NCBI GenBank assembly: GCA_973895155.1 | Contig: OZ316892.1 | Span: 20,585,619-20,649,618 of the forward strand | Source of the DNA: Marsupella aquatica | Lineage: Eukaryota > Plantae > Marchantiophyta | Reading direction: 5' to 3' | Length of the DNA: 64,000 nt | In this document: in pieces, positions 6,211 to 61,876 of the stretch | How positions within the stretch are numbered: the stretch's first letter is position 1 | Layout: every line of letters starts with the position of its first letter | The notes under the pieces: model-generated | Database searches by the model: none | The model's input: the letters and a program-made list of their open reading frames with translations, nothing else | What the model was told of the DNA's origin: nothing | Program-made: the position numbers and the translations under genes

Positions 6211-6322
6211 AGTCCCTGCTAAAGCATTTAATATGCCTCGATTCTCCCCCACAAAGCCACCGGAAGGACCCCCCGTTTTCCCATCAAGCCAGGCATCCCC
6301 CCTCGTCACTTTTCAGGCAGGT
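6211..6322 (+). repeat. Left terminal inverted repeat
   Basis: 44-bp perfect core, then ccggaag, tttccc and tcacttttcaggc blocks matching the right copy in order. Confidence 0.9.
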
Positions 6323-7685
6323 AAACACTGCCCCTGCCAATTTGCCCGTGAGTAAGCCCGTGAGTAACTGTTTTTTACCTTTACATTCAGTTTTCACTCA
6401 ATTTTGACGCACAGTCTCGGGCTTAACCTGATTTGCAAGTCTGTGAAAGTCTGTGAAAGGAGACAACTATCGGGATTGGGTTTTTCTTCTTCTGTTTTTT
6501 CTGAAGTGGACGATGAACCGAGGGGATGAATCTCGAGTCCTTGATGGACTTTACACACTGAAAAAGTAAAGTAGCCCAGAAAAGACAATAGAGGATACAC
6601 AACGTAGCCCAGAAAGATCTACAAGGCAGCCCAGAAAAACAACAGAATTCTTTAAAAAAAACTTAGACAGATTTCTATTTATGTTATGACATCACCGGTA
6701 AATCTAATTTTCAAATTACTTATTAAATTCTTAACGAATGGTGACAATCCTGAGCTCATTAGGAGAGTCTCTCCAAGATCTTTCCGATGCTATATTATAT
6801 GTGACTTTTCATTGTGATTTGACTCAGAAATTTGAAATCGAAATTTGCAGCCGGGAAAAAAGTCGCGAAAATCTGAAATTTCGATTCATTGTAACTCATT
6901 CAAATCTAGACTAAAATCTTCGATGTTGGATTCTTTTGAAGCGGATTGACAAGATCTTTCTAATGTATCATAGCACTCCCAAATTTTGTTGTGGATTGAC
7001 ATATTGACTCATTAAATTCTTGCTGCAGAGAAAAGTTGATGGAAACTATCAGCTGCATGAAGCAACGGTGAAAAAACGAATTCAAAGACTGAACAGTCTA
7101 ATTAAGCAGAAGCAAAACCTACGATGCTATCGTTTCTCAATAAATTCATGGCCCGATTACTTACAAGTAACCATGGACGTCTGTCTGTGTTCAGTGTGTC
7201 TGGAATTCCTGAATGAAAATTGCTCAAAGCAACTCGGGTAAGAATGGACGTCTGCAATTTTCGTTTTGTTTGTTGCTTCCAGGCCAAAAGATGGCCATTT
7301 CTCGAGTCGGGCCAAATTGCTTATGTGGATGTAAGGAAATAATGAAAATTGCTCTAGAGGCAAAAAAGTTAACAATGGACATCTGTCGGCGAGTCTCATG
7401 TTACGCTGTTCTCAGAAGTCCAGTGCACTGGCTTTTAAAAGCGAGCTTGTAGGTTAAAGATCTTCCCGTTCTAAGCAAATTAAATGTTGGGTTATAAGTA
7501 AGGCTAAGCGCATGGCTGAACATATACAAAGGGAGCTTAAGTTCAAATCAATCAAATACACTGGTTAACCCAAATTTTATAAAAAGTCTCCGCATGACAG
7601 TACTTCGTCAAAACTCCATTGTATTGTATTCTTCAAAATGGAGGAACATTTCTATTTAATCCTTTATGTCTTCTACATAAGAGGC

Positions 7686-10600
7686 TTAGAATTGCCTTAG
7701 CTGACTTTCCAGAGAAATAATAGGGTATAGGGAAGACCACATGCCAACATTTGACACCTCATTTAGGCAAATAGGACTCATTCCAACCATACTTGACGTC
7801 TTCTCTTCTACAACTTTACTAACTTCCTGGCCAGGGGCCTTCTTCTGAATAGGTGGTTTGGGAGCTTGTTTCACAGGAGCCTTTTTCTGCCCAACTGGTT
7901 TCACCTTTGCAAGTTGTCTGGCATCTTTTTTCATCACCTGTGTTGCAGACGAGGTTGCACATGAATCTGTATTCTCAATGTCAACATTGTTTGCCTTCCG
8001 ACTGCTAACCTGTTTTATAGGCTTCTTGTAACGCCCCATTGACGCTGTGAGATGCCAATCGTGCTCCTGGTTGAGATCCAGACTTGCCAACGCTGCCTTG
8101 TCAAGTTTTTGCTGATCTGACTCTTGCACTGTAACAATTCTGACAAAGGGAGCTGCAAAGTTCTTTTCATTGGGGCCTCAGTCAAAGTTGAGCTTCTCTG
8201 TGAATTTGGTAAACGCCTTCCTCTCTTCCACATCTTGTCCACAAAAGACTCTTTCCTTTTCAAGCTACGGTCTGCCCCAGGTACAATTTTGAATGCAGGT
8301 GGATTTGGCATCTTCAGCAATGGAGTAGGCCCAATTTGTACAGAGTCATATCTAGCCCCAAGTGAAAAGATCTCATCTCGTAATTTTAGCAAGCCAGTCA
8401 TGCCAATGCTATTCAAATGAGGAATGCTCTCAACTTTACCATAAATCTCCTTTAAGACTTTTCATAATGCCCATAGCTAAAAGTTAGATCCTCCTTTTCT
8501 GGCTCACAATCCTCCAGTAGTGGCTCACAATCCTCCAATACAGGCTCTTCTACATTTGCCTGGTCTGAATCATTGCTGGCTGGATCCATATTAGGCTCTG
8601 GATCCATATTAGGCTCTGGCCACTGTGCCCTCTCAAATTTGAGCCCACCCACCATAGTTCCATAGGTTTGAAGAATCTTGGACTCACACATGCCACTCAT
8701 AAGCAACAATTTTATTTGTACATCAATAGAGAAACACAAGTAATATGAGACATTGTCATGATAATGTGTTTCATATTTCATATGAAATTACAGTTGTGGC
8801 TAGGTAAGATATAAATGCACCTGAAGCTTACAGGTATTACCTTGCATGCTGGATCCACAAGTGCACATGCAAGTATCATCGAAGTATCCTTCAAGGACGT
8901 GCCACTCTCCTGGCTTCTTCTGGCTACAAACAAATGCAACAGTGTTGCCTTCCTGATACTTGACATCATCTACAGGAATGCTCCTTGCCTTCAAGATGGT
9001 TTTCCAGATTATGTCTTCAATTTTCCGATTTCTGACCCGCCCTTGCCACTTCATATAAGACATACACCAATAGTGGTGTTCAAGATGGATAATCAATTGT
9101 TCTACTAGCCAAACAACCTTCCGCCCTACCTTAGTAGATTTCTCTTCCTACAAGTATCGCTTCAGAGTTCCATGCCATCTCTCAATCGCCCCATTGGTGT
9201 TCTGGTTGGCATGGTTGAAGCTCCTGAAGTTTATAACCCACTTATTGATCTTACAATGCCAGTATGTTCTGTAATACTCCACAAACACTAGTTGCTCATC
9301 TCCCCATGATGCCATGAACCGGAGGGACTCTTCGACAGGGTCTGTGAAAGAAAACAACACACAATCATGAAATAAGACAGAGCTTTCTGGAGACAAATAG
9401 GGTCAGAGTTTACCTTTGTTTTTCTGGTACATGAGGTCTCCAAGCTCTTAATTCATTCTGGCGCATGAATGGGGATCTCTTACTTTTTCCAGTATGTTTT
9501 TAGTCCATGCTCTCCTCACATCATGCCACACACATAAAGTGATTGGAACACCTGGCCAACCTCACTGCCAACGCAAATGGAGTCAGATGATATAATACAG
9601 TGACAAGGTGCTTTAATACTGGAATTTTTAAGCAACTGTGTTTGGGTGAAACTACCTTAACACATTCTGCTCTTCAGCTGCACAATCCACTATAAAACAA
9701 GCCGGAGCCCATGTCCTGTCTAGGCGTAGGTCATCTTGTTTGGTTCTTTCCATGGCTACCTTTACTGTAGTCAGAACTTGTAGTAAATCTCTCTCTTTGT
9801 GGGTCTCCATTAGAGCCCAACATGTGGAATTCCATTCTGGAATTCATCAAAACAGAGCACAGTGTACAAAGAATACTGTACATGCACACAGCCAAGGTTA
9901 CAATTACCACTTAAACTTTTCAAAACAGTAATATAAGTCAACCTGGAACCTGGAATAGAAACAAAATTTTAATGAGTATCACTAACCTCATACTCATTCA
10001 CACCAAAAGTGGCATCCATGGACACAGCACTACCATGCTCAAGAGTGGCCATTTTTTCCAGTTGCCACTCAGTTGCAAACACCAATAGAAAAGGAGTTTG
10101 TGTCTTCTCATCCCTCTCTTGGTACAATAACACTTGACAACCCATTAGCTTGCACCCACAATTTGCATCCCAGAGGATCATCACTCGCCCAATGACTTTT
10201 CCGACTGTTAATGGCTTTCTTGACATTTTGAATGTCCTTCAAATCTAGTCCCATGTCCCTTGTCCAGATTACATTGGCTCTGTCACTGAACCTCTTTCTA
10301 TGCTCACGCAGCTCTTCCCGTTGGGCCTTCAGAACTCCCAGTTCAGTGACTCCTGTTCGCAAGAGCCTTTCAATGCTCTCACAAAGGTCAATGGATATTT
10401 TGGGGGCAATGTGAGCCCCCACATCCCAGCAGATCTGTCCTCCCAACCATGACAAAAATTCCCTGTATTATCAACATGTTTGAACTCTATGAATTTCAAC
10501 AAGCAAGCATTGGGCCTTTCCATCTCCTTGAAATTCGCTGAAAAATTGAATCTACAGCCTCTCCTAAAAGACTCTCCAGTATGTGTAGTCTGTCGTAGTG

Positions 10601-10950
10601 GTTTCTCTCCATTTTGAAGAACTCTATTTTCTGGTAGATCTTCCCGGATGTCTCCCCTGGCATCTTTTGGTCCATAACAACAAAGATACCTGGCTTATGG
10701 TCAACCAACCACGTTCTTTGTTTCTTAATACTGTTTCTTTTATTTTCAGGCAAGTGTTAAATTTCTCACGACATTCCTCCCCTTTCAGGAAATCTTTGAG
10801 CCTGGATTTTGGAATCCAAGCTTCTTTTTTAAACCAGGTCAAATGATCAAAAGTAAACTTCCCTGGTGCTGGAATCTGGATTTGGTCACATTGTAATGCA
10901 CCATAGTGACGTCTTGATTTTTTGACATTCGAAGCATTCCCATCAGACAT
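7686..10950 (-). pseudogene. MULE (Mutator-like) DDE transposase with SWIM zinc finger, disrupted
   Basis: Joined frames give YLCCYGPKD...RGCRFNF...H (N-terminal zinc motif), SMDATFG (D1), FIVDCAAEE (D2), LCVWH, NTNGAIERWH (E) and CMCTCGSSMQGNTCK (SWIM, His lost). Several frameshifts (~10700, ~10420, ~10135), in-frame stops (e.g. 9148-9150) and GT-AG introns. The 3' end is approximate. Confidence 0.85.
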
Positions 10951-11189
10951 CTGACATTGAAAATAAAAGTGTAAGGACTAGTACTTGCAATTCAAAGAAA
11001 CAAAGCGTTTCTAATCAGAAATTACAGTTATTATTCTATTTCATTTACATCCAGTCACTTACTCTCTATAAATCTCAAAAAGTTTAAGCATGCAACAGGC
11101 TCTCGTCATTCACTGACACACAATCACTCTCAATATGTTCACACAAATATTGTTTTCCATTAGAATAGAACACACAGGGCACATCATTT

Positions 11190-11407
11190 GCATTACTCAC
11201 AGTTATTGTTATCATTGCATCAGATCTCATTGCAATGCATATTCTCAATTTAGTTTTTATTTACGCACGACTACTGTAGTTCTCATTGAGTTACATGCTT
11301 TCATTACTCACAATTACTATTATCATTGCGTCAGATCTCATTGCAGGGCATATGATTCTCAATTTAGTTTTTATTTACGCACGACTAGTTCTCATTGAGT
11401 TACATGC
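11190..11407. repeat. Tandem duplication (~110 bp x2) upstream of the MULE coding region
   Basis: cattactcaca...cagatctcattgca...ttctcaatttagtttttatttacgcacgacta...gttctcattgagttacatgc occurs twice. Confidence 0.8.
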
Positions 11408-11787
11408 CAGTCATCGCATTGCGTCTTCCTTCTATCGTATTGCGTCTTCCTTCCAATCATTAAATCTTTCTCAAAGCATAGTGTAAAACTGACATTTGTG
11501 TACAAAATGAATGTAGTCACTTACCTTGGAACACGATTTCGGACCGACCGAGAAGTGTGTCGGAGTTCTCGTTTAGCCCGATCCCGTTTTTTTTCTAAGG
11601 CAATGCAATGACCGATAAAATTGGAAAAAACTCTCCGAAACGCCACTTTCCTCCATTGCATCGCCGCGGGAATGCAGGGAGCGATACGTGCATCGGGTTT
11701 TACATTTCGTCAGTGAAAAAGTCCGAACTGCGAGTAACTTGGTCCGAACCGCGTAATCCAGGAACGACCACGCACTAACCCAGGTAA

Positions 11788-11850
11788 AGGGGAAACTTAA
11801 CCATGGTTAAGGGGAAATTAACCATGGTTTAGAGCGTCTCCTATATAAAG
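11788..11850 (+). promoter_or_regulatory. Putative divergent promoter: duplicated 21-22 bp unit containing a 16-bp palindrome, followed by a TATA box
   Basis: aaggggaaacttaaccatggtt / aaggggaaattaaccatggtt; CTTAACCATGGTTAAG at 11796-11811; ctatataaag at 11841-11850. Lies between the minus-strand MULE gene and the plus-strand cargo ORFs. Confidence 0.45.
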
Positions 11851-12442
11851 AGGAGCGGGCTGCCCATAAAACGTTTGCTTTCGCCAGAGCAAATATCTCC
11901 TGACTGAGAGCGAATACCAAACTCCCATCAAGTCTTACATTCCTCCCAAGCGATTCGACTCTTTCTACCGAAAACCCGATAAATTTATCGGAACAGCCAT
12001 TCCTGTTCAAGTTCTCCATGTAAGACTAACTAGTCATTTAGTGTAAAATGTCCAGATCCGAGCGGACTGCGATAAATTTATCGCATTTTGCATTCCTCTG
12101 TTGCAATCATTTGATCCAGTGTTTAGAGAGGTGTTGCCTTCATTCCGATAAATTTATCGGAGTCTTCATTCCTTTCATGGAAAGAGGAGTAATTGAGAAT
12201 CTGATAAATTTATCGGAGTTGTCATTTTTGTGAAAGATTGAATTCAGGGGTTAGGTGTCTGAGGAAGTCATATTTTCAATTCGAATGCGGAGTGCGATAA
12301 ACTTATTGCATCCTCCTGTGAGAATCATTTTCCTTTGTTTTGTTTGGAGACTCATCTTCATCTCTGATGTCGCAGTGTTGCCGGGTTTAGGAGGCACAAC
12401 GGAAGGTCGATTGCACTCCGTGGACAACAGGTATTGTGACAA

Positions 12443-12772
12443 ATGGCTGTCTTCCTTGAAAATTGTGTCAAACGTGCACGCCGGTTGTACAAGAGACTCG
12501 TGCGACTCAAAGTTCTCCCCATCGGTATAGGAGCATTGTGGATGGGTGGTACTGATCCTGGAGATAGGCAGAATCCTCTCCGCATTGAATTCTGCAGAAT
12601 GAATGATGCAGGAGTTCCAATTCGTTCAAGGTTGATGTTAACGGCGTGTTTACATTCTTTGGAGTTTTCTTGTAACTATTGTTGTCGTCGTCTTGACAAC
12701 AAGTACCACAAACAGGCTCACTTTTGTTGTAAGATTTGGAACGAAGACCCTTGGGTGAACCTTTCACGATGA
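12443..12772 (+). CDS. Small Cys/His-rich hypothetical cargo protein
   Basis: 109-aa ATG ORF with CLH..CNYCC..HFCC; co-oriented with the neighbouring cargo ORFs; no recognisable family. Confidence 0.35.
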   Translation: MAVFLENCVKRARRLYKRLVRLKVLPIGIGALWMGGTDPGDRQNPLRIEFCRMNDAGVPIRSRLMLTACLHSLEFSCNYCCRRLDNKYHKQAHFCCKIWNEDPWVNLSR

Positions 12773-12966
12773 GTGTTTCGACCTTTTCATTGAGGCGCGT
12801 CTTGGAAGGACATATTTAAATAAACAAGTCCTACCCTTGCGCAGCGAATATAATACGTCACGAGTCCTAATCGTTAAAATGTCGTGCAGGGTTGGTACTG
12901 TGGATGTGTTCGGTTACACCTGGTGATTGAAGGTATTTTTATTGGTGGTTTTGGTAGCTCTGCTTC

Positions 12967-13515
12967 ATGGCTGCATCGGAGAATCTAATCGTTGCAAAGA
13001 TGGGATCCATTTTAGCCCACGAGCGTAGGAAATATATTCGAGGAAAAGTGCCCGGTGTGGAATGCGGAAGTTTGTTGAATGGACTTCCTGATGAACTCGT
13101 TGAATCTCACATTTGGCCCCTCCTAGCCTTGTCTTGCACACAAGATGAACACCTTGGCCTTGACCTAAAACTTCTACCAGAAGAACGACTGACTCGAATG
13201 AGAACAATAATTTGTCTTGGAGCCACCTTGAAGAAATGGAACCATCTTGTTGTTGGTACACGATTTTGGGCGCTATTGAAATATGCAGTCCGTGAGATCA
13301 ATGACATAAACAAAATGCTCGCAAGCATTCCTAATGCCGACCTTCTCTCAAACCTACATATTGCTAGGGTCTTCCGAGAGGAAACTCATTTCCTCCCTCC
13401 CATAGATATGCTTGGGTGCTTTTCGTATGAGCAGTTAGATCAGTTTCGTAGAGTTTGGATAAATCTTGGAGAAAGCGGGAAGCGGACAATTCTTGCATGG
13501 CATGGACGAGTCTGA
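12967..13515 (+). CDS. Hypothetical cargo protein with F-box-like motif
   Basis: Uninterrupted 182-aa ATG ORF; LLNGLPDELVESHIWPLL and LGATLKKWNHLV resemble the two halves of an F-box. Confidence 0.55.
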   Translation: MAASENLIVAKMGSILAHERRKYIRGKVPGVECGSLLNGLPDELVESHIWPLLALSCTQDEHLGLDLKLLPEERLTRMRTIICLGATLKKWNHLVVGTRFWALLKYAVREINDINKMLASIPNADLLSNLHIARVFREETHFLPPIDMLGCFSYEQLDQFRRVWINLGESGKRTILAWHGRV

Positions 13516-13807
13516 GTGGATGAGGCATTGCTACGAACATCCGATAAATTTATCGCACTCCTCATTCCTCTAGTTGATTTTGGGTGCTTGTAAAGAAACA
13601 CTTTGAATATAATTGACTCTGCCTCCCCTGACTTCGGGTTGTGTGGTCTAGAGTGTATTTTTTTGCGCCTCTTCGGACGATTAGCTGACAAGTGCATTGG
13701 CTTCACAACCCGTTATACAAGGTACTGTAAAGTTGGATGAAACTTGTAGAATTGTAATTAGTATGTTCTCCAAAAATTATTCCTGATTTCTATTCGGTGA
13801 TCAGGCC

Positions 13808-14521
13808 ATGCTCGAGCGACGCATTTTTGTACCCTACCCGGATCCTCCAGAATGGGGGAATGGAGCCATGCTGGACCAGCTAAGGAGGCTGGATGAGTCA
13901 CTAATTTTAAAGATATGCAGGCTGGTAGTAAAACCATTTTACCATAACGCATTTCACTTCTACGTAGATCAGGTAGGGGGAGAAATTTATATTCGGTGGG
14001 ATAGATATGTTGGATTTTCTAGAAGAGTTATCCTACTCTTTCTGAAAACCGGTGCAGTAAGACGTTTTATACTCCACTGTTGTCATGTTGTGAAGGGCAA
14101 TCCTGCTTATGAGCCAGAATTCTATGCCGACAATAGACGTAGAGCATTCGATGAGATTCAGGATGTGATTGACGAGCTGGACAATCCTCTTGCCCCCGAG
14201 TTTTTTATTGACACTGGTGGGAAACTATATTCATACAAGATTCGTCAACTCCCCCCCCAGCCGGTCTGTGGGCTCTTTAACTTGATCTATGTAAGTTGCC
14301 TGTGGACGAACGTCCTTGCCAATGGTGAGATCTGTCCATGCTGCACAAATGCTTGTTGTGACATTCCGTCACGCCGGTATTCAGTAGCAGTAGTGAATCC
14401 TGAGACTGGTGAAGTTGATTTCCATTGGCTGTGGGCTTATGATCATCGCGTCACTCATATTCCCCAATGGCCCAAGAAGCGGATCGAACGCTTTGCTCTG
14501 GCGAGGTTCAACTATGATTAG
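13808..14521 (+). CDS. Hypothetical cargo protein, weak F-box-like N-terminus and Cys cluster
   Basis: Uninterrupted 237-aa ATG ORF; LRRLDESLILKICRLV; CPCCTNACCD. Confidence 0.55.
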   Translation: MLERRIFVPYPDPPEWGNGAMLDQLRRLDESLILKICRLVVKPFYHNAFHFYVDQVGGEIYIRWDRYVGFSRRVILLFLKTGAVRRFILHCCHVVKGNPAYEPEFYADNRRRAFDEIQDVIDELDNPLAPEFFIDTGGKLYSYKIRQLPPQPVCGLFNLIYVSCLWTNVLANGEICPCCTNACCDIPSRRYSVAVVNPETGEVDFHWLWAYDHRVTHIPQWPKKRIERFALARFNYD

Positions 14522-14741
14522 GGTTTAGATTTAGGGGTTAAGGTTTTGGATTTAGGGTTCCGTAGCTGATTCTTCGACCTGTACACTCGGCCGGAAATTT
14601 AAAGAAGGCTCACTTTTGCGATAATTTTATCGGTCTCTTTGTCCTTGTGTGATGAGATGTCGTGTCCACATGTGCTGTGAGATTGGCGGCGATAATTTTA
14701 TCGCTCTTTGCATTGGAATTTGTTTATTTGCAGACTTTTCC

Positions 14742-17700
14742 ATGGCTGCTAGTGGAAAGAGTGGATCTGCTGAGGCAGAAAGTCTCATGACAAGCCTCAC
14801 CAATGCAATTTGGACAAGTGAAGACATTTGTGAAGAGGTCAAGTGTATCAAGAAGTCATGGTACTTCCGTGACGCCAGATTACAGTCCACGGGTTTCGAA
14901 GACTGTGCTACCCCAATCCTTTGGGTCTAGTTGCAAAAATCGGCGAAAGTTAATGTTTCATATGGCCCTGTCATTGCTGTTGTCGTCGTCGAGTTCATGG
15001 TTGGCCACGGGGAGGGAAAAGTGTTGACAGAGGGCCTTAGTTTCTTGACAATGTGTGGGCGCAAGGGTTTCACATCTCTCATTGTTACTCTCGATAACTT
15101 TGATGAGAAATCGATGGACAGTTATCCAGAAGATCCCCTTGTTGCCAATGTTCGGGCAGCAAGAGAGATGAATGTTATGGGTTCAGCTTGGATTGGCCAG
15201 TATGTGCAAGATTGTGATGCCATCATGCTTCCAAGGGTGAACGCAGAGTTCAAACCTGTCCGCAAAATTGTTTTCAAGAAACCAGGTTCAAGTGGCAGCG
15301 GTGGTTCTAATGCCGATAAAATATCGGGGCGGAAAGAACCATTGCAATCCTCTACACATATTGACGTGGACGAACCTACAACTTCTGGTCGGGTTTCGGG
15401 AAGTGGAAAAGGGAAAGGGAGAGGTAGCGGCAGGGGAGATGCCGCGGGAACCTCTGACGGTGGGAAGAAGAGCCAGGAAACTGGCGGTAGTGGGAGAGGC
15501 CGGGGCAACCGTCGAGGACCATCCGCTAAACCAAGCGAAAGTAAAGGATCCGAGGGATCCGGGCCATCTGGTTCTGGACTTAGCACAAAGAGGAAGAGGA
15601 CTGGCTGGACTGAGACGGTGGCTGCAAAAGTAGATAGAGCTCCGTCAATTCCATCAATTCCAGTCGCGGTTCCTGCGGCGCCATTGGTAAGTACTACGTC
15701 GTTGTACTGTTTAACAAACACGAAATCCGATAAAAATCTCGTTGTTTATTTCCTGAATTGCGGATTGTGGAGTTATGTTGAACAAATGCGAACTCCGATA
15801 AAAATCTCGCAGTTTCTTTCCTTAATTGAATTTGCAACGCTTTTGTAGGCTGATCAGGAGGAGGAGACGGCTCTTTTGATGTATGAGACGGACGCGATCA
15901 AGGCAGAGCTCAATCTTCTGATGCAACGAAGGGTGCAAAGGACAACTGTGCTTCTGCATGTCGACAATCTCATATTTGATGAGGAGGGGGATTTGTCAAC
16001 TTTGATTAGACCAGTGGATAGATTGCATGTGGAAAATATCAAGATACTTCTCATGAAAAACCCCACCAACTTCAGTGCCCCGTTCGTGCTGTGTGTGGAT
16101 CCGAAGGATTGTCCCACAACCGCAGATTGGGACATCCTGAAGTCAAGGGGTATGGAAGTATAGAATTATTGGAGGGAATCATGGTGCTCAGGCAAAGTCC
16201 GAGTTGTTTAAAATGTACGGGAAGCAAATATATGGTGAGCTGGAAGCTTGGGTTTATGCTGGGCTTACGAGATCCGAGGTCCGAAAGTTAGGCTTCCAGC
16301 ATAACTATGACCAGGAGTATCGGAAGAACATGACTAAAATTGACCAAGTTCGCGCTTGTCACAATATTTTCCTTGAAATGGGTGTGGGCTCGACTAAAGA
16401 TGTCCGCGAAGCATGTTGTCAAGAATGCATGATGGAGTACACGCCAGGAGTTCGTGACTCCATGGCCAAACATGATCAGGCTTTCCAAATTGCTTTCCGA
16501 ATAGGTGAAATTTGGGATCTTCAGGAGAAGATTTTCCAGATGTGGGAGAAAGGTATTGTCTTAGGACAACCCAAAAAAATTGTGGCAACGACGAACGCAA
16601 AGGGAAAGGTAAAACCTTTGACGGTAAGGGAGATTAAAATGAATAAACTTGCTGGTGACCTCAACTTAAATTCATTTCGAGGTCTCCAAGGACTGTCAAA
16701 TAAGGAGCATGTCAAGCGTATCTTGAATAGGGTTATCGGGAAGGTGATCACTTTGGATCAAATGCACAAGGAAGGTGAGAAGTTGAAAAAGCTTGCCAAG
16801 GTGAAGAAACTATTTTTGCAGATATCTGGTCAGCCAGATTGGGCAACATGCAGAGAAATATTTCCCAACGAAACAGATGTCTCGGTCCTTGGCATATGGG
16901 CGGAGAAATTGAGTGATGCGGTAAGCATTCCTCTCACAGCATGCTCTATCACGAGATTTTTATTGGCTTTAGCATTCCTTTGTTGGTTTCTAAGCGATTG
17001 CATCTATTGGCTAGCGTGCTCCATCGCGAGATTTTTATCGGCTTTAGCATTCCTTTGTTGGTTTCTAAGCGATTCCATCTATTGGCTAGCGTGCTCCATC
17101 GTGAGATTTTTATCGGCTTTAGCATTCATCTCACGCTATTCTAACTGTAGATGTGTCTGACATTCTTACAGCTGAAAATTAATTCAAAAAGGAAAAGCAA
17201 AGTGGTTCCGGCTGTCACTTATAATTCTGCGGGGGAGGTTATTGTTCCCTCAGCTGAAATCCCTTATGTGTTTAAGAATTTTGTGCTTGCTGCAATCGAT
17301 AAGTACAATCGGCTGAGGTCCTTAGGCGAGGGCACAGCAGAAGCGTTTGAACAAACATGGAAAAATGCAGACGGGGATTCTTTTCCCTACTATCTCCATG
17401 TTGGTGATGTTCGAATTTTGGATTCTTTTGTTCAGCCAAGGGCTTACACCCTTGCGGTTGCGGATATTCCGTATGGTTTTAATGCTCCTGGTTCGGAGTT
17501 TGATGAAGTGGCCTTCACAGAAAAGGACATTTTAGACATGTTGACAAGTTTCTCAAAGATGAAGACCGCTAAGCAGTGGAGGTTTGTTGTGATCCATTCA
17601 CTACAACAAACGCATATGGTGATGTCTGCACTGGAGAGTGTATGCAACTGTGGGGTCGAGGCTGGAATCTAGGAGAAGACTAACATTCATGAGCGTCCCG

Positions 17701-18284
17701 CTGGAGCTCGATTGGCGTGGGGTTTTGAGAACTGGTCGATAGGTTTCTATAGCGAGGAAGGCATTCGGAACATGAACATGTACAATTTCCAACCGGATGA
17801 GTCTCGCGTCAATATCATCAAGGTTCCATGTGTAACCAAGAAGTCCGTTGATCCGTTGGGATTTGTTGTGAACCCATATCAGAAGCCTGTTGGTTTAGGG
17901 GCTTGGTTTGTTTCCCATTTCTCTGAGAAAGAGGATTGGGTTATTGATCTTTGTTGTGGAACCGGATCGACATTAGCTACTACGCTCCTCAATTCTCGCC
18001 AGGGTTGTGCTGTTGATAAGAGTTCTGCGCAGATTGGTTTTGTAAAATCCCGGATCATGATTCTGGAGTCAAACTGGAATTTATATGAAGAATCCCAGAT
18101 TGAAGGGCACGGCGTTGAAGGTCATGAGATTCAACCACCAATTGCAGGCCAATTGGGTGTACTCGGGACATCGACTTACGTAGTTGAGGTCGTGAAGGAG
18201 ACCGAAGAGGAACAAGAAGAAACTGAGGAAGAGCCTCCCAGAACACCAAATGAGGATGATCTCAACGACATGTTATTAGATTAG
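14742..18284 (+). pseudogene. ParB/Srx-like domain fused to a beta-class N6-adenine/N4-cytosine DNA methyltransferase (~1040 aa, 3 exons), disrupted
   Basis: Exons 14742-15686, 15849-16920 and 17172-18284, joined by phase-0 GT-AG introns. ParB-like: IRPVDRLHVENI..APFVLCV..YRIIGGNHG..AWVYAGLT..HN. MTase: motif IV DIPY (17463-17474), I[W*]EK, PYQKP (17874-17888), motif I VIDLCCGTGST, RQGCAVDKS. Lesions: TAG at 14928-14930, +1 frameshift ~16147, TAG at 17670-17672. Confidence 0.88.
16938..17127. repeat. 75-bp tandem repeat x2.5 in intron 2 of the ParB-MTase gene
   Basis: Read-through translation repeats every 25 aa; each unit carries a CGAGATTTTTATCG-type site. Confidence 0.9.
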
Positions 18285-18611
18285 TTGCGTGTGCTCGTTA
18301 GGATAATGTCAATCACCAATGAAGTTGTCGATAAATTTATCGACTTCTGTATTCCATGAGGAAGAACCTTTCTCACATTTATTAATGCGATAAATTTATC
18401 GGACTTTGCATATATCAGACTGTCGCGGTGTTCCTGCTGGGGGAATGGAGTTGTCGATAATCTTATCGGACAACATTGTATTCTCTAACTGGTTTGTCAT
18501 TGCAATTATTTAAAAAAAAGATATCATTATAGCTACGGAGTACATAGTCCCAGAACGATAACCACTGTACATATTCATGGGAACGATAACCATTATAACT
18601 TAAACCTGAAA

Positions 18612-21600
18612 CTAGCTTCGACTATCAATGACTACAGTCTCCATTGCATTTTGAATGATTCGTCTTGTTTGTATAGGGAGAGTACTATTTGCCAATAACG
18701 CAAAGTTATACGCATAAACGGCAGTTTCTGATAGGGACAATTCATCCTCCAGTACTTTGCTAGACGAAGCCTCTTTCTCCGGATAATATCTGCCTTCAAT
18801 TGCAGACTCTTCCTCCGAATCCATGGCATACCAAGTGATTTTAATCCGCTCCGGGATGTCGTTAATTCTTGTGAGAATCTCAGTCACTTTTGCCATCCAG
18901 AATGGTCTTCCCTTGGGATCCTGATGGGCTGCTACACATATCATTGCAAATTTAGTATTCACCTCTAGATCCTTGAAGTCTCCAATTTCTGTGACTTTTC
19001 TTCGACTTCCGGAATACATGACTGTCCTCACACCCGCTACTTTATCAACCAAGCTAGGTTCCATTGCTGCTTCCGTAGGATTACTCGGAAGTTCTCTCTG
19101 TACGTTTACCTTGGGCCAACTCCAATCAAAACTCCATTGTGCAGGTTTTAGGTGGTGCTGAATCACTTCTTTTTGTTTGTCAAAAAAATGACCCCACCAT
19201 AGACGATCTGCGTCGTCAAAGTAATTGAATCCATCTTCAATTGCTCTTCGATATTTTTGAAGAGTTGACAAATAACTTTGAGCCGCTCGCTCATCTTGTT
19301 CCTCAGCATCATTCTCTTGCTCTTCATTGTCTCCTGTCGCTCCCGTGGCCGACTTCAATGCCATTTGTGGTGCGACCCACATTCCAGATGATGGAATGTA
19401 CCGAACAAAATCCACCGTCTCCCCCCAATCGATTGTCGTTGAAAGATGTTTGGCATGGAATATGGACCGAGCACTTCCATCTTTGAGTACTCTAGTAATC
19501 CGAAATTGTTTTTGAGCACTTATGTCGTGGAGAGTACGTAGAACCTGACCATCCATATCCTTGTCATTTGCTTGATCTTTGTCTGACACAAATTTCTTGA
19601 AATCGGCAACCTCGTCGATGAAAAATATCTTTGCCGTAGGATTGTAGGATTCCTCTATGATTGCTGAAAGAGTGTCCAACCGGAAAGCTTTTCGCTTGTT
19701 CAATTTTGAAGAAAACTTGCTAAACATTTGATCAATTTGATCATGGGTGTGCCCCACCAATAGGAAACCAACCTTTATTTTCTGGAAAACACCTATCTCC
19801 ACCAACATATTCAAATATGTCATAAGATATTTATTCTTGTTTTCCCGAGCTGTGTTATCAAGCTGGAGGTAAAGCACTGGAGGGAGCAGACCTTCCCAGG
19901 TATTTAGAATATGCTGGATAACGTGGATGGTCAGGTTGCTATCATTGTGAATATTTGGATAGTTCAAAAAAACATTTGAACTTAATTGTTTATTGAAGAT
20001 CAAACAACCCACTACGTGTACGGGGATGAAATACTTTTCATCCATATTCTTCGGACACCGAATGAAATGAGGTAACTCTGTCTTCTTTTGATCCATTCCA
20101 TCAATACAGATGCCCAAATATTTCTCCGGACTCTTGTAACATTTGCTCCGGTGCTTTGCTAACTTCTCCCTCTCGACTGCTTGTGCCTTCCGATGCTCGT
20201 TTAGCAATGTTGAGAATTTTCCTACAATAATAAAAATGTTTAGGACAAAACATGATAACCGCAATGTTGAACCCTGACAGCGATAAATTTATCGGGTTCA
20301 GTATTCAAACACGAGACCGTAATGATAAACCTTGACAGCGATAAATTTATCGGGTTCAGTATTCAAACACAAGACCGTAATGCAAAATTGTGACAACGAT
20401 AAATTTATCAGGTTCAGTATTCAAACTGTTCAAACGATATATTCACTCACATGGCCAAAGAAGAAGCACATGAATACTCAACCCGATAAAATTATCGGGA
20501 GTAACACACAGGTTTAGAAACTTGCTCTTTTCTGCTTCGAGTGTTGCCTAGTCACGGAGTGCTTTGAATTCAGTATACGGGGCGCAGGTGGAGAAATGGC
20601 TCCTTTTGGGGATGCGCACGCGAGGAAACTCCTTGTTCCAAATGCGAACAAACCACGAATATGTCATGCCTTGTTCTTGGCGCATTAGAGTTTCGGATTG
20701 GAAGGCATCAAAAACTTCTGTTTTTGTCCAATTGTCAGGTAAATGAAAGATATCCTTGTTGGGGAGACTCTCGATATTTGTGGAAAAAAAATCATCTAGC
20801 CATTGGACGAGACCAAGATGTGCGGGTGATTTTTCTCGACAAATTGTACCGATCTGTATCCGAGAAAACATGTTCTTCGAGATTTTTTGGAGACGATTAT
20901 TTCCTAGTGAAAATAATTTCTTAAAACCACTTCGACAAAAGGATCTACCGCTAACTGAGTAACCACTTGCACCAGCATGCCCACCCTTCACACATCCTCT
21001 TAGAAGGACGTTCTTCTTTGGGTAGGATAGCCCATAGTAATAAGTGCGTTGTTTCGTCACGGCTAGCAGACCCAAATTCCGCAGACAGTAATTATCACAA
21101 CACGAATACTTATGAATTTATCTCATTTTATTTCTATTCAATTTGTCATTTATCACATTGTCTTTCCTAGTAATTCGGTCCCTATCTTTTTTACTAGGCT
21201 CATTTGACTTCTCTACAACCTGAAATCCATTCATAACATTGGCATTTTCGGGTCCTTCAGGTGCCTCGCAAATAGATGCATCACTCTCTGCTGAGCTACC
21301 ATCCACTATAGATCTCCTTGACGCATTTAGAGGGGCACTGAATAGACGACTATAGCTATTCTCTTCGACAGCTCCTTCTAAACATTCAGACACAACTTGT
21401 GCTATTATATCGGATTCTCTATCTCCTTCCTCATCTTCGTCCTCCGATGCACTCGACTCATCTGAAAACACAATTGGACTCCGTGGCTCTCTATACATAA
21501 CCCGAACGCCACTAAGACCTCTCCTCGATACTTGGAGCCTGGAACCAATGACAGTCCGCCCTTGAGAACTTGGAGATTCTGGATTCGCACGTGCAGTCCC

Positions 21601-22203
21601 AACGACTCTGCGAGCTGCTGGAAAATTGAGCACTTGTTCACCACGATTCCCACGGACCATTTGAGAAAGGGCCGAGTCTGGACTTCGCAGTCCGATTCCC
21701 TCGCTTGCTCGCACATCCAATCCAGGCAATGCAAAGACCGATCGCCGTATCGGTCTTTGTATTTCTGTGTCCCGATCCTCACCCGGAGACTGAAAGATCC
21801 ATCGTTGAACTTGTGTTGAATGTGGCGACTTGAATGCCGACTGTGATACGCGTATCGGTCGCCGGATACCCTCTCCATAACCCGGGATGGATGGCCTGAA
21901 GCGACGTCTCGGACCTAAACTTGGGATTGAAAGTTTCTCATTTCTTGGCGATGGAACGCTCAAGCGACGACGCTTCTCAGGTTTACTAGGCGACACATAG
22001 TAAGCACTGGGCTCAGGACCAGAACTTGCATCAGAATCTGAGTCAGAGATTTTGGGCACTATTTGTTGTGAGAGAGGTAGAGCTTTAAGTATGCGACTTG
22101 GCAAACAGCGAGCGATAAGATTAGGAGAGGATTCAACTGAACTGGAAGGTGAATCTGTGTCTGATTGAGACATGGCTATCCGAGACACTATGGGGCTTTG
22201 CAT
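18612..22203 (-). pseudogene. DUF7869-like (Sola-like) DDE transposase, ~1095 aa, 2 exons, with nonsense codons in exon 1
   Basis: Exon 1 22203-20526 (Ser/Arg-rich N-terminus, CCDNYC, FCRSGF, WFVRIW..FP.VRIP..S.FSTC) has in-frame stops at 21118-21120 and 20548-20550. Phase-1 GC-AG intron 20525-20222. Exon 2 is open: IDGMDQKKT..PH, NDSNLTI, LYLQLDNTARENKN, FLLVGHTHDQIDQMFS. Confidence 0.8.
20272..20427. repeat. ~58-bp tandem repeat x3 in the transposase intron
   Basis: tgacagcgataaatttatcgggttcagtattcaaac repeated, with palindromes at 20281, 20339 and 20397. Confidence 0.9.
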
Positions 22204-22317
22204 TCCTCCCACAATCAGGGAAAACGAAAGGCTCAACGGACAGAATGTTGCTCCAAGAACACAACTCCCAAAACTCTACTCTCGATAATGACGCCAAAAA
22301 GTTATCGGCGGTGGCCC

Positions 22318-22366
22318 TTTTATAGTGTCTGTTGAGGGGTTGGCCCACGTGTCCACTTTTGATTGG
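22318..22366 (-). promoter_or_regulatory. Putative core promoter of the DUF7869-like gene
   Basis: On the minus strand: CCAAT (22362-22366), G-box CACGTG (22346-22351) overlapping TGGGCC, then TATAAAA (22324-22318), ~115 bp upstream of the ATG. Confidence 0.5.
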
Positions 22367-22459
22367 CTGTCACCCTAAACGACAAAATAGCAGAAAAGGG
22401 TATATTTCTTGGATTTCCAATTTCATTCTCACACGTGCATCGTGGCAAAATTATATAGT

Positions 22460-22650
22460 TTTGAAATTGAAGCGATAAATTTATCTGATGTTGGTATTGC
22501 AAAAGTGGTTCCTTCATATGGAAGTTGCAATTTGAAATTGAAGTGATAAATTTATCTGATGTTGGTATTGCAAAAGTGGTTCCTTCATATGGAAGTTGCA
22601 ATTTTGAAATTGAAGCGATAAATTTATCTGATGTTGGTATTGCGAAGAGT
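22460..22650. repeat. ~71-bp tandem repeat x3
   Basis: tttgaaattgaag(c/t)gataaatttatctgatgttggtattgc... with palindrome variants at 22473, 22544 and 22616. Confidence 0.9.
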
Positions 22651-23357
22651 TTTCTTCATATTGATAGGAATTTTGAAATTTAACCGATGAACCGAAGGAT
22701 CTTAGTATTGTCGACTAGTATTTTTGTCGCCCGTAGTTTTCGCGATAATTTTATCGGACTGCACATTGTTGTTGAAAGAATGGCATGTTGACTATGGTCA
22801 CTTGCGGAGGTAACTGGTCAATTGCGGAGGTAACTGCAAGGTAAGTTTGACGAACCGTGCAGTAATTCTTATCGACTGTGATGTAAAATATTTTTGGTAA
22901 ATATCCAAAAACTGAGAAACCTGAGATTGGGTCGGAGTTTTCGTAGCTCAAATCCGGAGTCCAATACAGTTATCGCACTTGGCTCGAAACATGGATATGG
23001 ATTTATAGATAAGACCTTTCATATATCTTCGGAGAGCGTGAATATGAGGTCGAGGAGAAATTTTTTCGGATCTAATTGTTCCTTGATAATATGAATGTTT
23101 GTTAGCATGAATTTCATTGGTTTTGATCATTATTAAATTTGCTGTTTCAATCCGAACTCCGATACGAATTACATTATTTCCCCAAAAACGCATTTTTGAT
23201 GAAAAAAACTGTCGATTTCGCGAGATTCGGCGGAAAATGAAAATACACTTCTTGTTTAGAGGAAATAGTTCTCGTTCGGTCCGAAATCGTGTTTTGGACT
23301 TGTATTTCACGGCATTTCACCTTCCGACAAGTTTTTCTTTGCAGCATGCCAAGGTTT

Positions 23358-23435
23358 GATCATTCATTCGACTCCCTGCCAACATATGACGCCGTCTGCT
23401 GATCATTCATTCGACACCCTGCCAACATATGACGC
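23358..23435. repeat. ~42-bp direct repeat x2 in the right subterminal region
   Basis: tgatcattcattcgac(t/a)ccctgccaacatatgacgc occurs twice. Confidence 0.85.
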
Positions 23436-23741
23436 AGTCGCTATCAACTAAGTGTTTGGGCCTGGCTACATACATTTCGAATCATTCCTGGCACTGGCAA
23501 GTGATGCCAAAAATCTGCACTTTTGCACTGCCATCTCCATGAGACCTCTGTGCCAAGGTCGACTACTGCACATAACATCGGGCATAACATTCATGCTACA
23601 GTGGTAAGACAGAGTACAGGCTATTGCTTTCACGCACATGCATAAAAGAGTACCTTCAGTTGGGATATTCCTGTGTAACCCTAAAGTAAATTCAGGAAAG
23701 TCAGGAACTGACAGGGCGGGCACAGGCAGCAAGAAAAACTA

Positions 23742-23852
23742 ACCTGGCCTGAAAAGTGAACAGGAGGTGCTGTCTGGAAGGGGAAACACGGTGGGCTCTT
23801 CCGGTGAGTTGTGGGGGAGAATCGAGGCATATTAAATGCTTTAGCAGGGACT
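23742..23852 (-). repeat. Right terminal inverted repeat
   Basis: Reverse complement of 6211-6322; perfect over the outer 44 bp. Confidence 0.9.
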
Positions 23853-26438
23853 CGTATCCGTGATCTCAGGATCAGTCGTTAATTTTCTGGGACACTGATG
23901 GTATTGACGGTCAATAATGTTGCTGCTACCGTAGTACTTGTTGGAACCATGCGCGATTCAATTCGTCATGAGGTTTTCTAAGCACTCAACTACCCAACAA
24001 ACATACGTGCAATTGCAATAAAGATTATATTTCTTTGCATGGAGCATGATTTGTGCAGAATCATCTTATAGAGTTCAACCTCCTTATTTCTTGGACCCAA
24101 CATGTACTGTAAACGTGCGTATTGTAGCATCATTTCTACATAATCTCTTATAGAGTGAAACATCTTTATTCCTTTTCCAACACATTCCATATGTATGAAT
24201 CGCATTCATTGTTCACTGCCTAAAATGCCTATTGTTTGTGTTGCTGGGCTATAATACGCTACGGTATTGACTGGGACCATGATTGAGTTCTCAATATAGC
24301 ATGCTCATCCTGAACATGCTTGAATTTTTTGTCTTGTAGTGATTTGAAAGTAAATAAAATATGAGAACATAATTAGAAGGATTAGTGCATAGTGACCAAT
24401 AAAAAGTACAATCAAGGATGCTACGATGTCTACACTTAATTCAATGTACTCATGAATGAAAAACCATAAACTTAGGAAAGAAAGACATAAGAGTAACTTA
24501 AGACACAATCAGAACCATTTCTCTCACTCATGAGAATACTTTGTTCAAGTGGTGGAGGCTTTTGGTTCATCTCTGATAAATCACAAACATCAAAATTTAT
24601 AAGGGGGCTGCCATAATAAGTCCAAAATACTCTAGAATCCTAAAATTAAAGGGATCCATAAATTAAATAAAAATGTATATTATACACAGGCTGCCCCTTG
24701 ATAAGGCACATTGAAATAAAAATATATGACACCAAAACTCTGAAAAGGTGGATTCACCATATAGCAGTTTCATAAATTTTTGAGGACAAATCAAAACCTG
24801 TGATGACTATTTTCTAGCAAAGACGAAGATCGACGTGTTTGTCGGCAATGCATCCTCGAGTACTGAGTTTAGGGCCAGGTCATTCTTGCGGTGCGCACAT
24901 CATGTCGTCGAGAACGACTTGTCCTCCTGTTTCATCTTGATTCACAAAACCCGTAGAATTGTGTGGATATGTTTAAGTAAGGGTGGTTTGGTCGCTCAAC
25001 GGGCAAGTTCCTAGAGTATAATACTCCTCACTTATGAGAAGGTTAAGTTTTCTCAAACATATATACAACGGAAGGGCCTGGGTGGAGATTGCAATCAAAG
25101 CTTTCAAGAGTTTTTGTGACCATTTTGCCATTACTCATCAAAACCCACCACTTGCCTTGTAGGGCATACTAGCCTCGAAGTGACCACCAGATGTATTCTA
25201 CAGTCGAGAATGATTCCTTGTCTATGAATTCCAGGTTATTGTCGATAGCAAAGACTTTCCATGCTTCGAAACTCCTGTCCCTTCATTTGCAATTGCTTAT
25301 CTGTTGAATTGCGTCCATAATACCAAAGGGTCCTTTGTAAACCAATCGTTTCCACTCAATTGCAAAACTGTTTGTATGCACTGGAGGAAGATTTGAACCT
25401 CTGAGTCAACATGCGAATATCTGGGCTGATGGGATCCAGTTGCCTAGTATAGATGTTTTAAATATGACAAAAGTTTGTTCCTGCGTGCAGAGGCAAGCTG
25501 TCTGGCAGTAGCACCGTTTTTATATCAAACGTTTCCTTCCATGGTTAGCATTTCAGGCAGAGTTTCTTTGAGGGAAGGACTTGTCAGATTAACGCATGCT
25601 GATGCAGTTCAGTATCCAATTCAAGTTCAGAACTGTTGAGTTGTTTTGAAGGGAGATCTTGTCTGATGAACCCAGTTTGATCCAGTTCAACATCCAATGG
25701 AAGTTCAGACTTCGGGAACAGAATGATCGGCAGAGATGCTGGACCAGAGTCATCTGGTCATAGATCTTCTCTGGTTCTACCCCTAAGTGACAATAGACTG
25801 GTTTACAATTGCTACCGAGTTTATGGGTAGAATTTCTCCCTTCCACTAATCACTAGCGATCAATAAGCTCCTGCTTTCTCTCATGACTCCAAACATCAAA
25901 TCGTCAAGAAACCTTGCGCTGTTGAAAAAAGCAGGGTTATCTGGTTCCAAGGAGTTACGGTTCGAATGTATACGGGTGTCCAAATGTCAAGGCAGTGGTT
26001 CCCACTTCAAAGGCGGTGAAACAGCTTCTATTAAAAAAAACATTTTCAGTTAATATCCTGTGGGTTCCGAATAAAATTGCCATGAGATCAACTGGTAGCC
26101 TGTGCGGAAAACCATTCCCACTCCCTTTATTGCTTTCATAATCGAGCTAATGTCGATGGACGGGAAACAATGACAGCCATCTTATGCCGACTGAATCTAT
26201 ACAGAGTAAAGTCTGATCTCATTTTCAAACCAGGAAAATGTTTCAGTCAAGTGGTACAGAAAGCACCATCGCTATTCACACTACTAATGTGCCTTGTCCT
26301 ACCTACGCCTGCACACAGTTCCCTCACTTCCCTGGGCACGCCGCCTCTCCTATATTTACAGTTGACATTTGCTGGACCGCATTATAGGGACCAATGGAAT
26401 AAAGAGTAGCTGCCAAAATTGTATTCACATTCATCACC

Positions 26439-29400
26439 CTACGACCCACACAATCCAGCAGCCACTTGTCCTAGAGGCACACATAATGTGTTCTCAAATT
26501 CCAACCCCGTTTCCCGCTTTTTCTCCTCAAAAGCCTGGTCACCTCTTGCTTTCGTTTTCACGGTTGGTAAACCCCAACTCAAAGGTAAAAGCAAATTGTC
26601 GGAGTTCAATGCTTCTTCTTTGATGGACAAGTCGGTTAAAATGCGTCTACCAGTGTCTTTGTTTACTGTTCTGCTTGGAGGACTCAACTCCTCCACGAGC
26701 CTCTGCATCACTTGATCACAGGTTGCACGTATAACCTGCCAACCGGCTCCAACACAATCATGGGTTAAGACTGGTCAGTTTGTAAGAATCACAAATGGTT
26801 ATCACAAACTCAACCCAAATATCTGTTCGACCCGGTATCTTAGCAGTTAACTTGAAGGGCAACAGCCATGTAGCGATTACAAATATGTCAAAAAGTACAT
26901 GTAAGACCAAGGATACCCAGAGAAGAGAAAGCATTCATATAACAAAACAATGTTAGAAATATGGTTAGTATAGGCAGACAATCAACTATTTCAGTCAGAT
27001 TTATGTTCACTCTGCTTGAACTACAGCTGAGAAAGATTGACAGAGCCTGGTTCTGGAATTATACCAGAGAAGCCCGCGAATCAAGTGGAGTACTCTGAAG
27101 ATTGACAATCACCACCCTCCCTCCATTACCCAAAATCTTTGCCGGTAGATCACAAGCTGGAGTAACTTTCAAGCTCGAACCTAATACTATTCCCAAATCA
27201 GCCTTCTGAGTATGCTTTGTTGCTGAATTCATTGCCTGCAGTTCAAACCAGGGTACAGAATTATGGCAGCCTCCTAGATTGACATGGGACTAAACGTTTG
27301 CGACGTGAGATATGTTTGTGTGAATCTCGTAATATGCATTTCATAGCAGCGAACAAACCGAAATTCAAGGCAAGAGACATCATAATAAAGCGTTCCCACA
27401 TGCCTATGCCTTAGCAACTCAGGCATTGCAGAGAGATTCCACTAATATCAAGAATCGAGTACTTGAGAAACACTGTCACGAACTCAACACTTTGTCAATC
27501 CTAGCTTTGAGGAAGGCTCATGTCTCACCTCTTCTGGTAATTCTTCCCAAAATTGAATCACTGAATCTTGAAGGTTTCCTTGGCATCCTACTTTTTCACA
27601 TTTCCTCCCCGTTTGATGTTTTGACTGTTGGTCTGTATCTTCCATCCCGGATTCCGACCTATTCAGCTTTGTCTGCTTCTTACACGTGGGGCCTCCATCA
27701 CTCTTGCGAAGCTTGCTAGGTCTTGATGAAGCAGATTGTTCAACCAGAAAGTTGACCCCTGGTTCAGTAGTTGATGCTAATCCAGCCCAAACAGCATAAG
27801 ACCTAAAGTAGGAAGTTTTGCATTCTGGACATATCTCTAAACAGTAATTACCATGGAGCTCACTTAGATTTTCCGGAAAGACTCCACTTCTTAAATGTAG
27901 ACCATCAATATTTTGAGAAATAATATGTCTTACTTGCCCTGCATCCAAAAGCCTTTTCAGGGCAATGTGGCTGAATGTTGGCTCCACCTGTACCGAAGAC
28001 AATGGTCTACTTATATTTGTTATGCCGCACACTACCAGACAGTTTGAAAGGTAAAACAATAAAACATGTCAGAAAGTACCAGTCTATAGAAAAAAGATTC
28101 TCCTAAAGATCTTATCTGTTCCCAACGCACAGAACAAAACCTGCGGATGTCCCATAAGCTAGAAAAGGATATCCTGATGCTACAAAAACCCACTATATAC
28201 AAATGCTGCAAGTGCATTGAATTCCTATACATCTTGTGCCTCTCATTGATAGCAATTCACGGGTCAGATCACAATGCAGACATATCAAGTAAAAGCTTCT
28301 AGATAGCTATTGAAATGGGTCCTTACTTGGTTGCTTTGCACTAAAGTCGTGCGAAACCTTAAAAACCATTTCAATTTCGAAACCCCAAAGGGACTACCTA
28401 TTGTAGCAAGATCATTGTCTTCAATAACGCGCTTGAACAGACTAGAAGTAATCGAAGACTTGATGATTGGACGGGGTAAGAGGAGGCTCCTTACTAACAG
28501 ACGGCTAAAGCTCCGGTTCGGATACAAAGCCTTCGTGAATAACATATTGACCAGGTCTGCAGTGGTGAGAATCAGCCTAATGGGCGTTACCAAAGGCAGA
28601 GCTCACTCTGTTGTTTCTAAATGTATGAAGGAATATAATAATGGCTGCGACCTCAGGGAGCAGAGGAAGATTTCTAGACAAACTAAAGTTCCCAGATATC
28701 AAGAGAAAACATTTCTCAGACGAATGCCCAGGATTAAGGAACAGTAGCAGTTAAAACGACTGCACGTTGTATAAAATTCAAAGATGTGATAAGGAGTGGA
28801 GGAATTTTGAGATGGGAGAAAGTACATATTTCCGGGGAGATTCTGAGGAAATTTTCAGAGGGGTATCTAGTAGCTACATCCTTCCGAGAGCATTAAATTT
28901 TTAGAGGGAACAACGTGATTTTGATGCTCGTGCCACAGAAAGCAGAAGAGAGATGATGAGTATGGAGAGAACCCATCCAATGTCCACCAGTAAAAGTTGT
29001 AACGGAAGCGAAAATAGACTGATGGCAAGATATTCAAAGGAACGAGTTGAGATGGACTTTCATTGAATAATGGACAATTAGCCCTGGCCGATAAAGTTCT
29101 ACCCACTGAGAACGATGGATCACAGACCTAATCACTCTAACAAAGCTTGAGCTGTGGAAGGTGAATTTCACAGCAGGAATGGATTGAATCAATAAAGATT
29201 TGAGCTTTCTTCCCAGTCTGTTCAAGCACTAATTACACCAAACCTACAGCCTGCAAAGATAAATTCCTATCCTGGAGAGTAAGAGGTAACCTTGCTGAAA
29301 TCAGGCTCGGACAGTCGCTTGCCTTGTGCTCTCATAGTCCAAACTCCTGAGGGTCCCCGGAAGTCCGGTATACCTGCTGCAGTTGAAAGACCAGCTCCCG

Positions 29401-59214: not shown

Positions 59215-59431
59215 CACAATTTGCTAGCCCACTTTTTTGCCCACTATCTTAGCACACTATTTTGTAAAGTGGACTATCCACAATTTGCTAGCCCACTATT
59301 TTGCCCACTATCTTAGCACACTGTTTTGTAAAGTGGACTATACACAATTTGCTAGTCCACTATTTTGCCCACTATCTTAGCACACTATTTTGTAAAGTGG
59401 ACTATCCACAATTTGCTAGCCCACTATTTTG
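59215..59431. repeat. 65-bp tandem repeat x3.3
   Basis: cacaatttgctagcccactattttgcccactatcttagcacactattttgtaaagtggactat repeated. Confidence 0.9.
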
Positions 59432-61700: not shown

Positions 61701-61876
61701 AATATTCCAAAAAATTGGTTAGAAAGACCCTAATATTTCTATAAGTCTTAAAATTGAATTGAAAAGAGCCTATTGTTCTTTTGCAAAACTTTTTAAGTCT
61801 TCCCTTCAAACCAATTGATAAAATGACCCTGTCCTTCATTGCACGTGATGTGTCATTTTTGTGGAAGTGAAACCCC
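61632..61876. mobile_element. MITE-like element copy 2 (a truncated copy lies at ~61100-61210)
   Basis: ggggtctcact ... tgtcatttttgtggaagtgaaacccc, homologous to 53850-54137. Confidence 0.6.

Follow-up and report, generated by a model that had tools for sequence, protein, structure and literature searches.

A ParB-like/beta-class amino-methyltransferase fusion carried by a palindrome-rich, likely plant DNA transposon: a candidate self-marking gene

According to their published descriptions, Marchantia DN4MT1 and bdelloid N4CMT are host genes whose products carry a (T)SPPY motif and make N4-methylcytosine (4mC; bioRxiv 10.1101/2021.02.12.428880, PMC8885841). Red-algal Plavaka elements have been reported to carry two accessory genes, one for a PF01555 methylase and one for a ParB-like protein, next to inverted-repeat arrays, and self-binding and self-modification were proposed (bioRxiv 10.1101/2025.02.11.637652). 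Arabidopsis VANC, as described, binds motifs of VANDAL elements that are placed similarly to those reported below, and removes silencing (PMC5735166). A survey of N6-adenine methyltransferases (N6A-MTases) records few of them in land plants (PMC4738411). Here, we analyzed a 64,000-nucleotide stretch of DNA (contig OZ316892.1, positions 20,585,619 to 20,649,618 of the forward strand; hereafter the window), which holds an 11.8-kb DNA transposon-like element with a gene for a ParB-like/methyltransferase (MTase) fusion protein. Detailed knowledge of how transposons evade silencing comes mainly from VANDAL/VANC, and the enzyme behind any N6-methyladenine (6mA) in the DNA of land plants is unsettled. 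With the element come a candidate writer and a candidate site for its binding, together with many copies that look intact, and both silencing evasion and plant 6mA thereby become directly testable.

The locus is very probably transposon cargo encoding a beta-class MTase. An earlier note on this DNA, made from the sequence alone, had proposed that the gene is borne by a transposable element. This was borne out: terminal inverted repeats (TIRs), a target-site duplication (TSD; the 4-bp direct repeat TTGG at 11526-11529 and 23294-23297) and a transposase-like gene, all features of a cut-and-paste DNA transposon, enclose the MTase gene. The enclosing TIR/TSD element, the dispersed palindromes and the red-algal precedent go beyond that note. 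The element and the gene are composed as follows (window coordinates).

11530..23293, no strand assigned: DNA transposon-like element of 11.8 kb with inverted repeats and TSD, enclosing the MTase gene
11530..11561, + strand: left TIR, its first 18 nt a perfect match to the right end
23262..23293, - strand: right TIR, inverted repeat of the left end
14742..15686, + strand: exon 1, N-terminal domain of unknown fold, then a Gly/Ser/Arg linker; holds the stop at 14928-14930
15687..15848, + strand: intron 1, predicted, GT..AG, phase 0, with palindrome variants at 15728 and 15796
15849..16920, + strand: exon 2, ParB-like domain (about 15939-16401) and helical region, with a one-base frameshift
16921..17171, + strand: intron 2, predicted, GT..AG, phase 0, with three copies of a 75-bp unit
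17172..18284, + strand: exon 3, beta-class amino-MTase and acidic tail; holds the stop at 17670-17672
18612..22275, - strand: DUF7869 transposase-like gene, convergent to the MTase gene (PF25273, E 4.7e-49)

The core exon of the DUF7869 gene (18612 to about 20217) contains DxxD, DN and GHTHxxxD motifs. A likely intron at about 20218-20550 contains four palindromes, and the upstream frame has a stop at 21118-21120. The product is a putative transposase, judged by acidic motifs typical of DDD transposases; phmmer against the PDB gave no matches. Sola elements combine a 4-bp TSD, the length also seen here, with a Sola-type DDD transposase, which the DUF7869 protein may resemble through a presumed DUF7869-to-Sola link.

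The gene runs from the ATG at 14742 to the stop at 18282-18284, exactly as the earlier note had placed it. Splicing both introns, with X at the two stops and the frameshift, gave a repaired protein of 1,042 amino acids (aa). This confirmed the proposed structure of two phase-0 introns, two stops, one frameshift and a ~1040-aa product, and the same exon layout recurs in L001, the sole related locus recovered from metagenome contigs (one confirmed of 337 pattern matches). L001 has three exons, 1,080 residues and one stop. Its product is 44% identical to the window protein over residues 13-1005 and 33% identical in the exon 1 N-terminal domain. Intron 2 occupies the identical aligned codon in both loci, and intron 1 lies within three codons, inside the unalignable linker. 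Relative to related copies, exon 1 is 24 nt shorter after 15244. The exon-3 start motif was found in 10 of 27 close homologues, in nine of them within the first 33 residues, which is what open reading frame (ORF) calls on a gene with introns would be expected to show.

By predicted fold, the exon 3 domain is a beta-class amino-MTase. The motifs DIPY (17463-17474, residue 770 of the repaired protein), PYQKP and DLCCGTGS (17946-17969, residue 931) place motif IV before motif I, the permuted order, and DIPY and DLCCGTGS are conserved in the family alignment (A1). At E<=0.01, PF01555 matched 22 of the 28 members of the alignment, the best of them at 9.6e-9, and the Pfam match to the broken window piece stayed below the cut-off (E 1.5e-4). 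Predicted fold, motif order and the PF01555 matches to the family thus sustain the assignment to beta-order amino-MTases. A phmmer search of the PDB with exon 3 gave no matches.

The ParB/Srx label proposed for the exon 2 domain stood in part. Family positions R369, GGxH 423-426, A430, GLT 453-455 and HN 466-467 align with the PR, GERR, A and EN motifs of ParB, and there is weak profile similarity; a ParB match in Pfam, NCBIfam or PHROG was not obtained. The replacement of the canonical Arg, also part of that proposal, held throughout: all 15 family domains lack the second Arg of GxxR and have G-G-[NGT]-H (GGNH at 16171-16182 in the window) followed by a non-Arg residue. Because the GxxR(R) arginine patch is absent, the protein is not a canonical ParB CTPase. 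A Pfam scan of the ORFs of the element revealed no ParA partner, and a PDB search with the A2 profile found MTases and no ParB chain. In the ESM Atlas, the window exon-2 piece and the Riccia domain matched clusters of phage ParB/sulfiredoxin proteins at 0.87-0.92; higher values, 0.96, were reached by fungal DUF3723 and by animal clusters without a name. We treat these matches as leads. DUF3723 is described as conserved Starship cargo (bioRxiv 10.1101/2021.12.13.472469).

The element is studded with a palindrome.

11977..22975, no strand assigned: dispersed palindrome CGATAA(A/T)(A/T)TTATCG and variants, clustered between genes and in introns

The form CGATAAWWTTATCG occurs 22 times at <=2 mismatches, always within the inner element (chance mean 0.53), and the palindrome often appears once per tandem-repeat unit of 58, 71 or 75 bp; each 75-bp unit of intron 2 carries one variant (16952, 17027, 17102). 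L001 carries its own variant, and both MTase introns hold palindromes at either locus. Matches to a joint window/L001 pattern number 28 in the element (26 of them non-coding), 18 in L001 (16 of them non-coding) and three in the rest of the window. Because this design outlasts the saturation of synonymous sites and avoids exons, the palindrome points to a candidate protein-binding site.

Homologues share this protein architecture. HMMER against 1.84 billion representatives returned 215 matches at E<=0.001; the listing covered 150 of them. When 20 distant or long ones were looked up, nine had a named species (Chara braunii, five; Riccia sorocarpa, two; Ginkgo biloba and Adiantum nelumboides, one each) and 11 were metagenome or Logan records. 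The same architecture was present in homologues from all four genera. Among the 13 listed proteins with >=300 residues before motif IV, 10 have the GGxH domain, a circular count in that these rows built the profile; the alignment of these long proteins displays a layout common with the window protein. The Chara gene model P0051 (GBG86584.1) has two tandem ParB-like/MTase units. P0083, P0087, P0092 and P0144 are unnamed metagenomic proteins of 690-980 aa that share this architecture and have DPPY, DLPY or SPPY motifs; P0083, P0092 and P0144 were not found in a scan of viral contigs.

In a phylogenetic tree of 44 rows with an arbitrary root, the window protein fell within a clade of 21 mostly unnamed rows (100/99), nested in a clade with Ginkgo (97/95). 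Chara formed a separate clade, most deeper unnamed rows carried DPPY, and three phage rows stood apart on long branches. The rows exclude 16 cluster duplicates and sequences lacking either motif (among them Riccia, Adiantum and three of six phage references), as well as DN4MT1 and N4CMT. Distribution and tree are consistent with an old family. The idea of a recent prokaryotic capture comparable to DN4MT1 and N4CMT was thus not upheld: the architecture extends across Chara, Ginkgo, Riccia and Adiantum, the protein groups with Ginkgo and unnamed plant-like rows and not with the three phage rows, and the motif is not SPPY. Searches of IMG/VR and GTDB contigs turned up no family member, and the matches of tblastn to phages did not go beyond motif I level, so that no prokaryotic donor was identified; as the root is arbitrary, we claim none. 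The names given to the homologues in public databases go no further than hypothetical or 'DNA methylase N-4/N-6 domain-containing'. A literature search, with most subscription papers and Repbase outside its coverage, yielded no description of a streptophyte ParB-like/MTase fusion family, and this transposon cargo family is apparently undescribed so far.

Public reads (four of eight listed runs, among them X1, X2 and X4) were compared with positions 14600-18400. At the stop 17670-17672, all depth at 17671 was G in four of four runs, which restores Trp; this residue is also present in 26 of 27 homologues, and the last homologue is too short. The frameshift lies in a G run near 16147-16150, and the extra base could for that reason be an assembly error. 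Reads showed a one-base deletion at 16147-16149 (1,067 of 1,159 depth units in X1, 614 of 1,147 in X2 and 2,476 of 4,422 in X4). The stop 14928-14930 was not among the 40 of 579 read differences listed. Many related copies lack two of the three breaks. Main read contigs reached depths of 840-908 in X1, with several minor ones at 32-34 (X2: 510-550 versus about 16.5), which suggests tens of gene copies, depth itself being no copy number. Contigs at 80-90% identity represent further subfamilies. From the 40 listed rows we hand-picked 21 copy-specific differences in which the other letter held nearly all depth. Eighteen were C>T or G>A; a CG or CHG context accounted for 14 of these 18, compared with 581 of 1,717 available cytosines. 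The pattern fits decay in which methylated cytosines were deaminated, and the proportion in CHG agrees with a plant host. The locus represents a likely accessory gene of the transposon, in decayed form.

What we infer for the intact product is ParB homology, palindrome binding by this protein and not by the transposase, catalysis, the base modified and an anti-silencing role. On the simplest reading, a dimeric protein would bind the palindromes through its ParB-like and helical regions, methylate its own element, likely to 6mA, and the methyl mark would keep the element active against host silencing by 5-methylcytosine (5mC). We assign this reading a probability of roughly 0.5. A wider version is more tentative, at somewhat worse than even odds: an old DNA transposon family of non-flowering streptophytes would combine parS/ParB-like self-recognition with an active adenine MTase, the protein would load at the element's palindromes, 6mA across the element would serve as a private epigenetic mark, and site and protein would co-diverge between families. 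If true, land plants would have a DNA-methyl writer encoded by a transposon, and their genomic 6mA a defined source.

Several points weigh against the self-marking reading. The putative homology to ParB is weak: when 15 family domains were compared by hhalign with 12 of 15 retrieved ParB domains, the probability was 2.4% (E 0.019, 110 columns in register), one of 100 column shuffles and three of 100 block shuffles reached that score, and hmmsearch between family and ParB was not significant in either direction. The joint palindrome pattern was defined after both loci had been seen. A degenerate palindrome sits in the left TIR at 11549, which makes the transposase a possible binder. The linkage of MTase and DUF7869 genes is known from one locus, L001 being too short for comparison, and the deamination pattern implies that this copy was silenced anyway. 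Finally, motif IV is D-x-P-Y, with the first Pro of [DNS]PP[YFW] replaced, and motif I has Cys for Phe; these two changes may impair catalysis.

The last point leads to the strongest competing explanation, which we nevertheless consider unlikely: a DNA-binding factor encoded by the transposon, its MTase domain dead or weak, would de-repress the element through occupancy or host-factor recruitment, as VANC does. In plant rows DPPY has become DIPY, DVPY, DAPY or DFPY and FxGxG has become CCGTG, DPPY being confined to deeper tree rows, and DIRS1 retrotransposons are described as carrying an adenine MTase domain that is likely inactive (PMC4738411). However, the Asp, the Pro-Tyr, the PYQKP segment and the GxG are retained, FSGSG is kept in the Chara and Ginkgo rows, and the MTase is the most conserved domain, with 64% identity at saturated pS.

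Slightly less likely still, the palindromes would serve the DUF7869 transposase or another cargo protein, and the MTase would act independently of these sites, with transposition intermediates, bulk chromatin or RNA as its target. The variant in the left TIR and the four in the transposase intron fit such a role, and eukaryotic N6A-MTases have, in the account of Iyer et al., repeatedly shifted to RNA. The palindromes are, however, spread over 11.8 kb, including both MTase introns of both loci, and not mainly near the ends.

It is improbable that the same self-marking is achieved by 4mC written at the palindrome CG, blocking 5mC there: motif IV begins with Asp in 105 of 109 motifs, whereas the 4mC writers DN4MT1 and N4CMT carry (T)SPPY, which is not the motif found here. 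The lean of DIPY towards 6mA rather than 4mC suggested earlier is supported. A host gene or passively captured fragment lying in the transposon by chance, as annotated gene models in Ginkgo, Chara, Riccia and Adiantum might suggest, is very improbable given the many near-identical and diverged copies, the element's palindromes inside the gene's own introns and the strong purifying selection on the gene.

The element holds two or three small cargo ORFs beside the MTase and DUF7869 genes.

12970..13515, + strand: cargo ORF with a start that we take to be F-box-like; no Pfam match
13808..14521, + strand: cargo ORF with no assigned function, 237 aa from ATG

A short Cys-rich ORF at 12440-12772 (CNYCC..., HFCCKIW), with no Pfam match, is a possible third cargo gene. 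The ORFs of the element gave no SET, 2OG or EnSpm Pfam matches. A viral origin was set aside in view of the introns, the TIR/TSD ends and the lack of a viral hallmark among the ORFs scanned.

An outer element (6190-23863), into which the 11.8-kb element is inserted, has 82-nt inverted repeats at 6201-6282 and 23781-23862 and a possible 8-9 bp duplication (CTCAGGAT). It contains a fragmented minus-strand gene at 7686-10977, whose motifs, without a Pfam match, we take to be Mutator/SWIM-like. The observed/expected CpG ratio was 0.87 inside the 11.8-kb element (0.79 with palindromes masked) and 0.81 in L001, compared with 0.41 in the left part of the outer element and 0.24 in its coding part. We rejected this higher retention as evidence of self-protection, because a younger nested insertion predicts the same. 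Elsewhere in the window are a host sirtuin exon at 27484-28068 (- strand; Pfam SIR2, E 2.6e-13), a cytochrome P450 exon at 45358-45840 (- strand; E 4e-4, below the cut-off) and a GC-rich array at 47648-48118 of about six imperfect repeats of 32-51 nt with a common GAATAGGTACA core. Tandem or dispersed repeats at 54802-55366, 59197-59431 and 60672-61877 (160-bp, 64-bp and 530-bp periods) are likely other mobile elements.

Compared with known systems, the window MTase has fold and motif order in common with CcrM, M.RsrI, M.MboIIA and M.BceJIV; it is 14-21% identical to them and differs by its DIPY and DLCCGTG variants and its additional N-terminal domains. DN4MT1 and N4CMT are likewise eukaryotic PF01555 beta-class enzymes, but in the published descriptions the former lacks further domains and the latter carries a chromodomain, whereas a ParB-like domain is fused here; by fold, N4CMT is no closer to the window MTase than the bacterial enzymes. 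Phage ParB-MTase fusions (ParB-terminase loci, L002) also have a ParB-type domain N-terminal to a beta-class amino-MTase, according to PMC4738411. They are, however, about 410 aa long, have DPPY and GHGR, lack the long helical region and introns, and fall outside the family in the tree. VANDAL/VANC resembles the present element in a short, family-specific motif enriched in non-coding parts and introns and amplified in tandem repeats. Its motifs are non-palindromic, 8-9 nt long and located in Mutator-like elements, and the published account describes no MTase domain (PMC5735166), whereas here palindromes accompany an MTase. Plavaka PAG2/PAG3 share with the window locus the DNA transposon cargo, the PF01555 methylase, a weakly detected ParB-like domain, inverted-repeat arrays beside the gene and a proposed role in self-binding and self-modification. 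There, by description, two separate genes encode a SET-methylase fusion and a fusion of the ParB-like domain with a 2OG oxygenase, and they are hosted by EnSpm/Plavaka, Mutator and Zisupton elements; here a single protein is carried by a DUF7869 element of a likely land plant. As far as these descriptions go, the ParB-like/MTase fusion sets the window element apart from both Plavaka and VANDAL/VANC.
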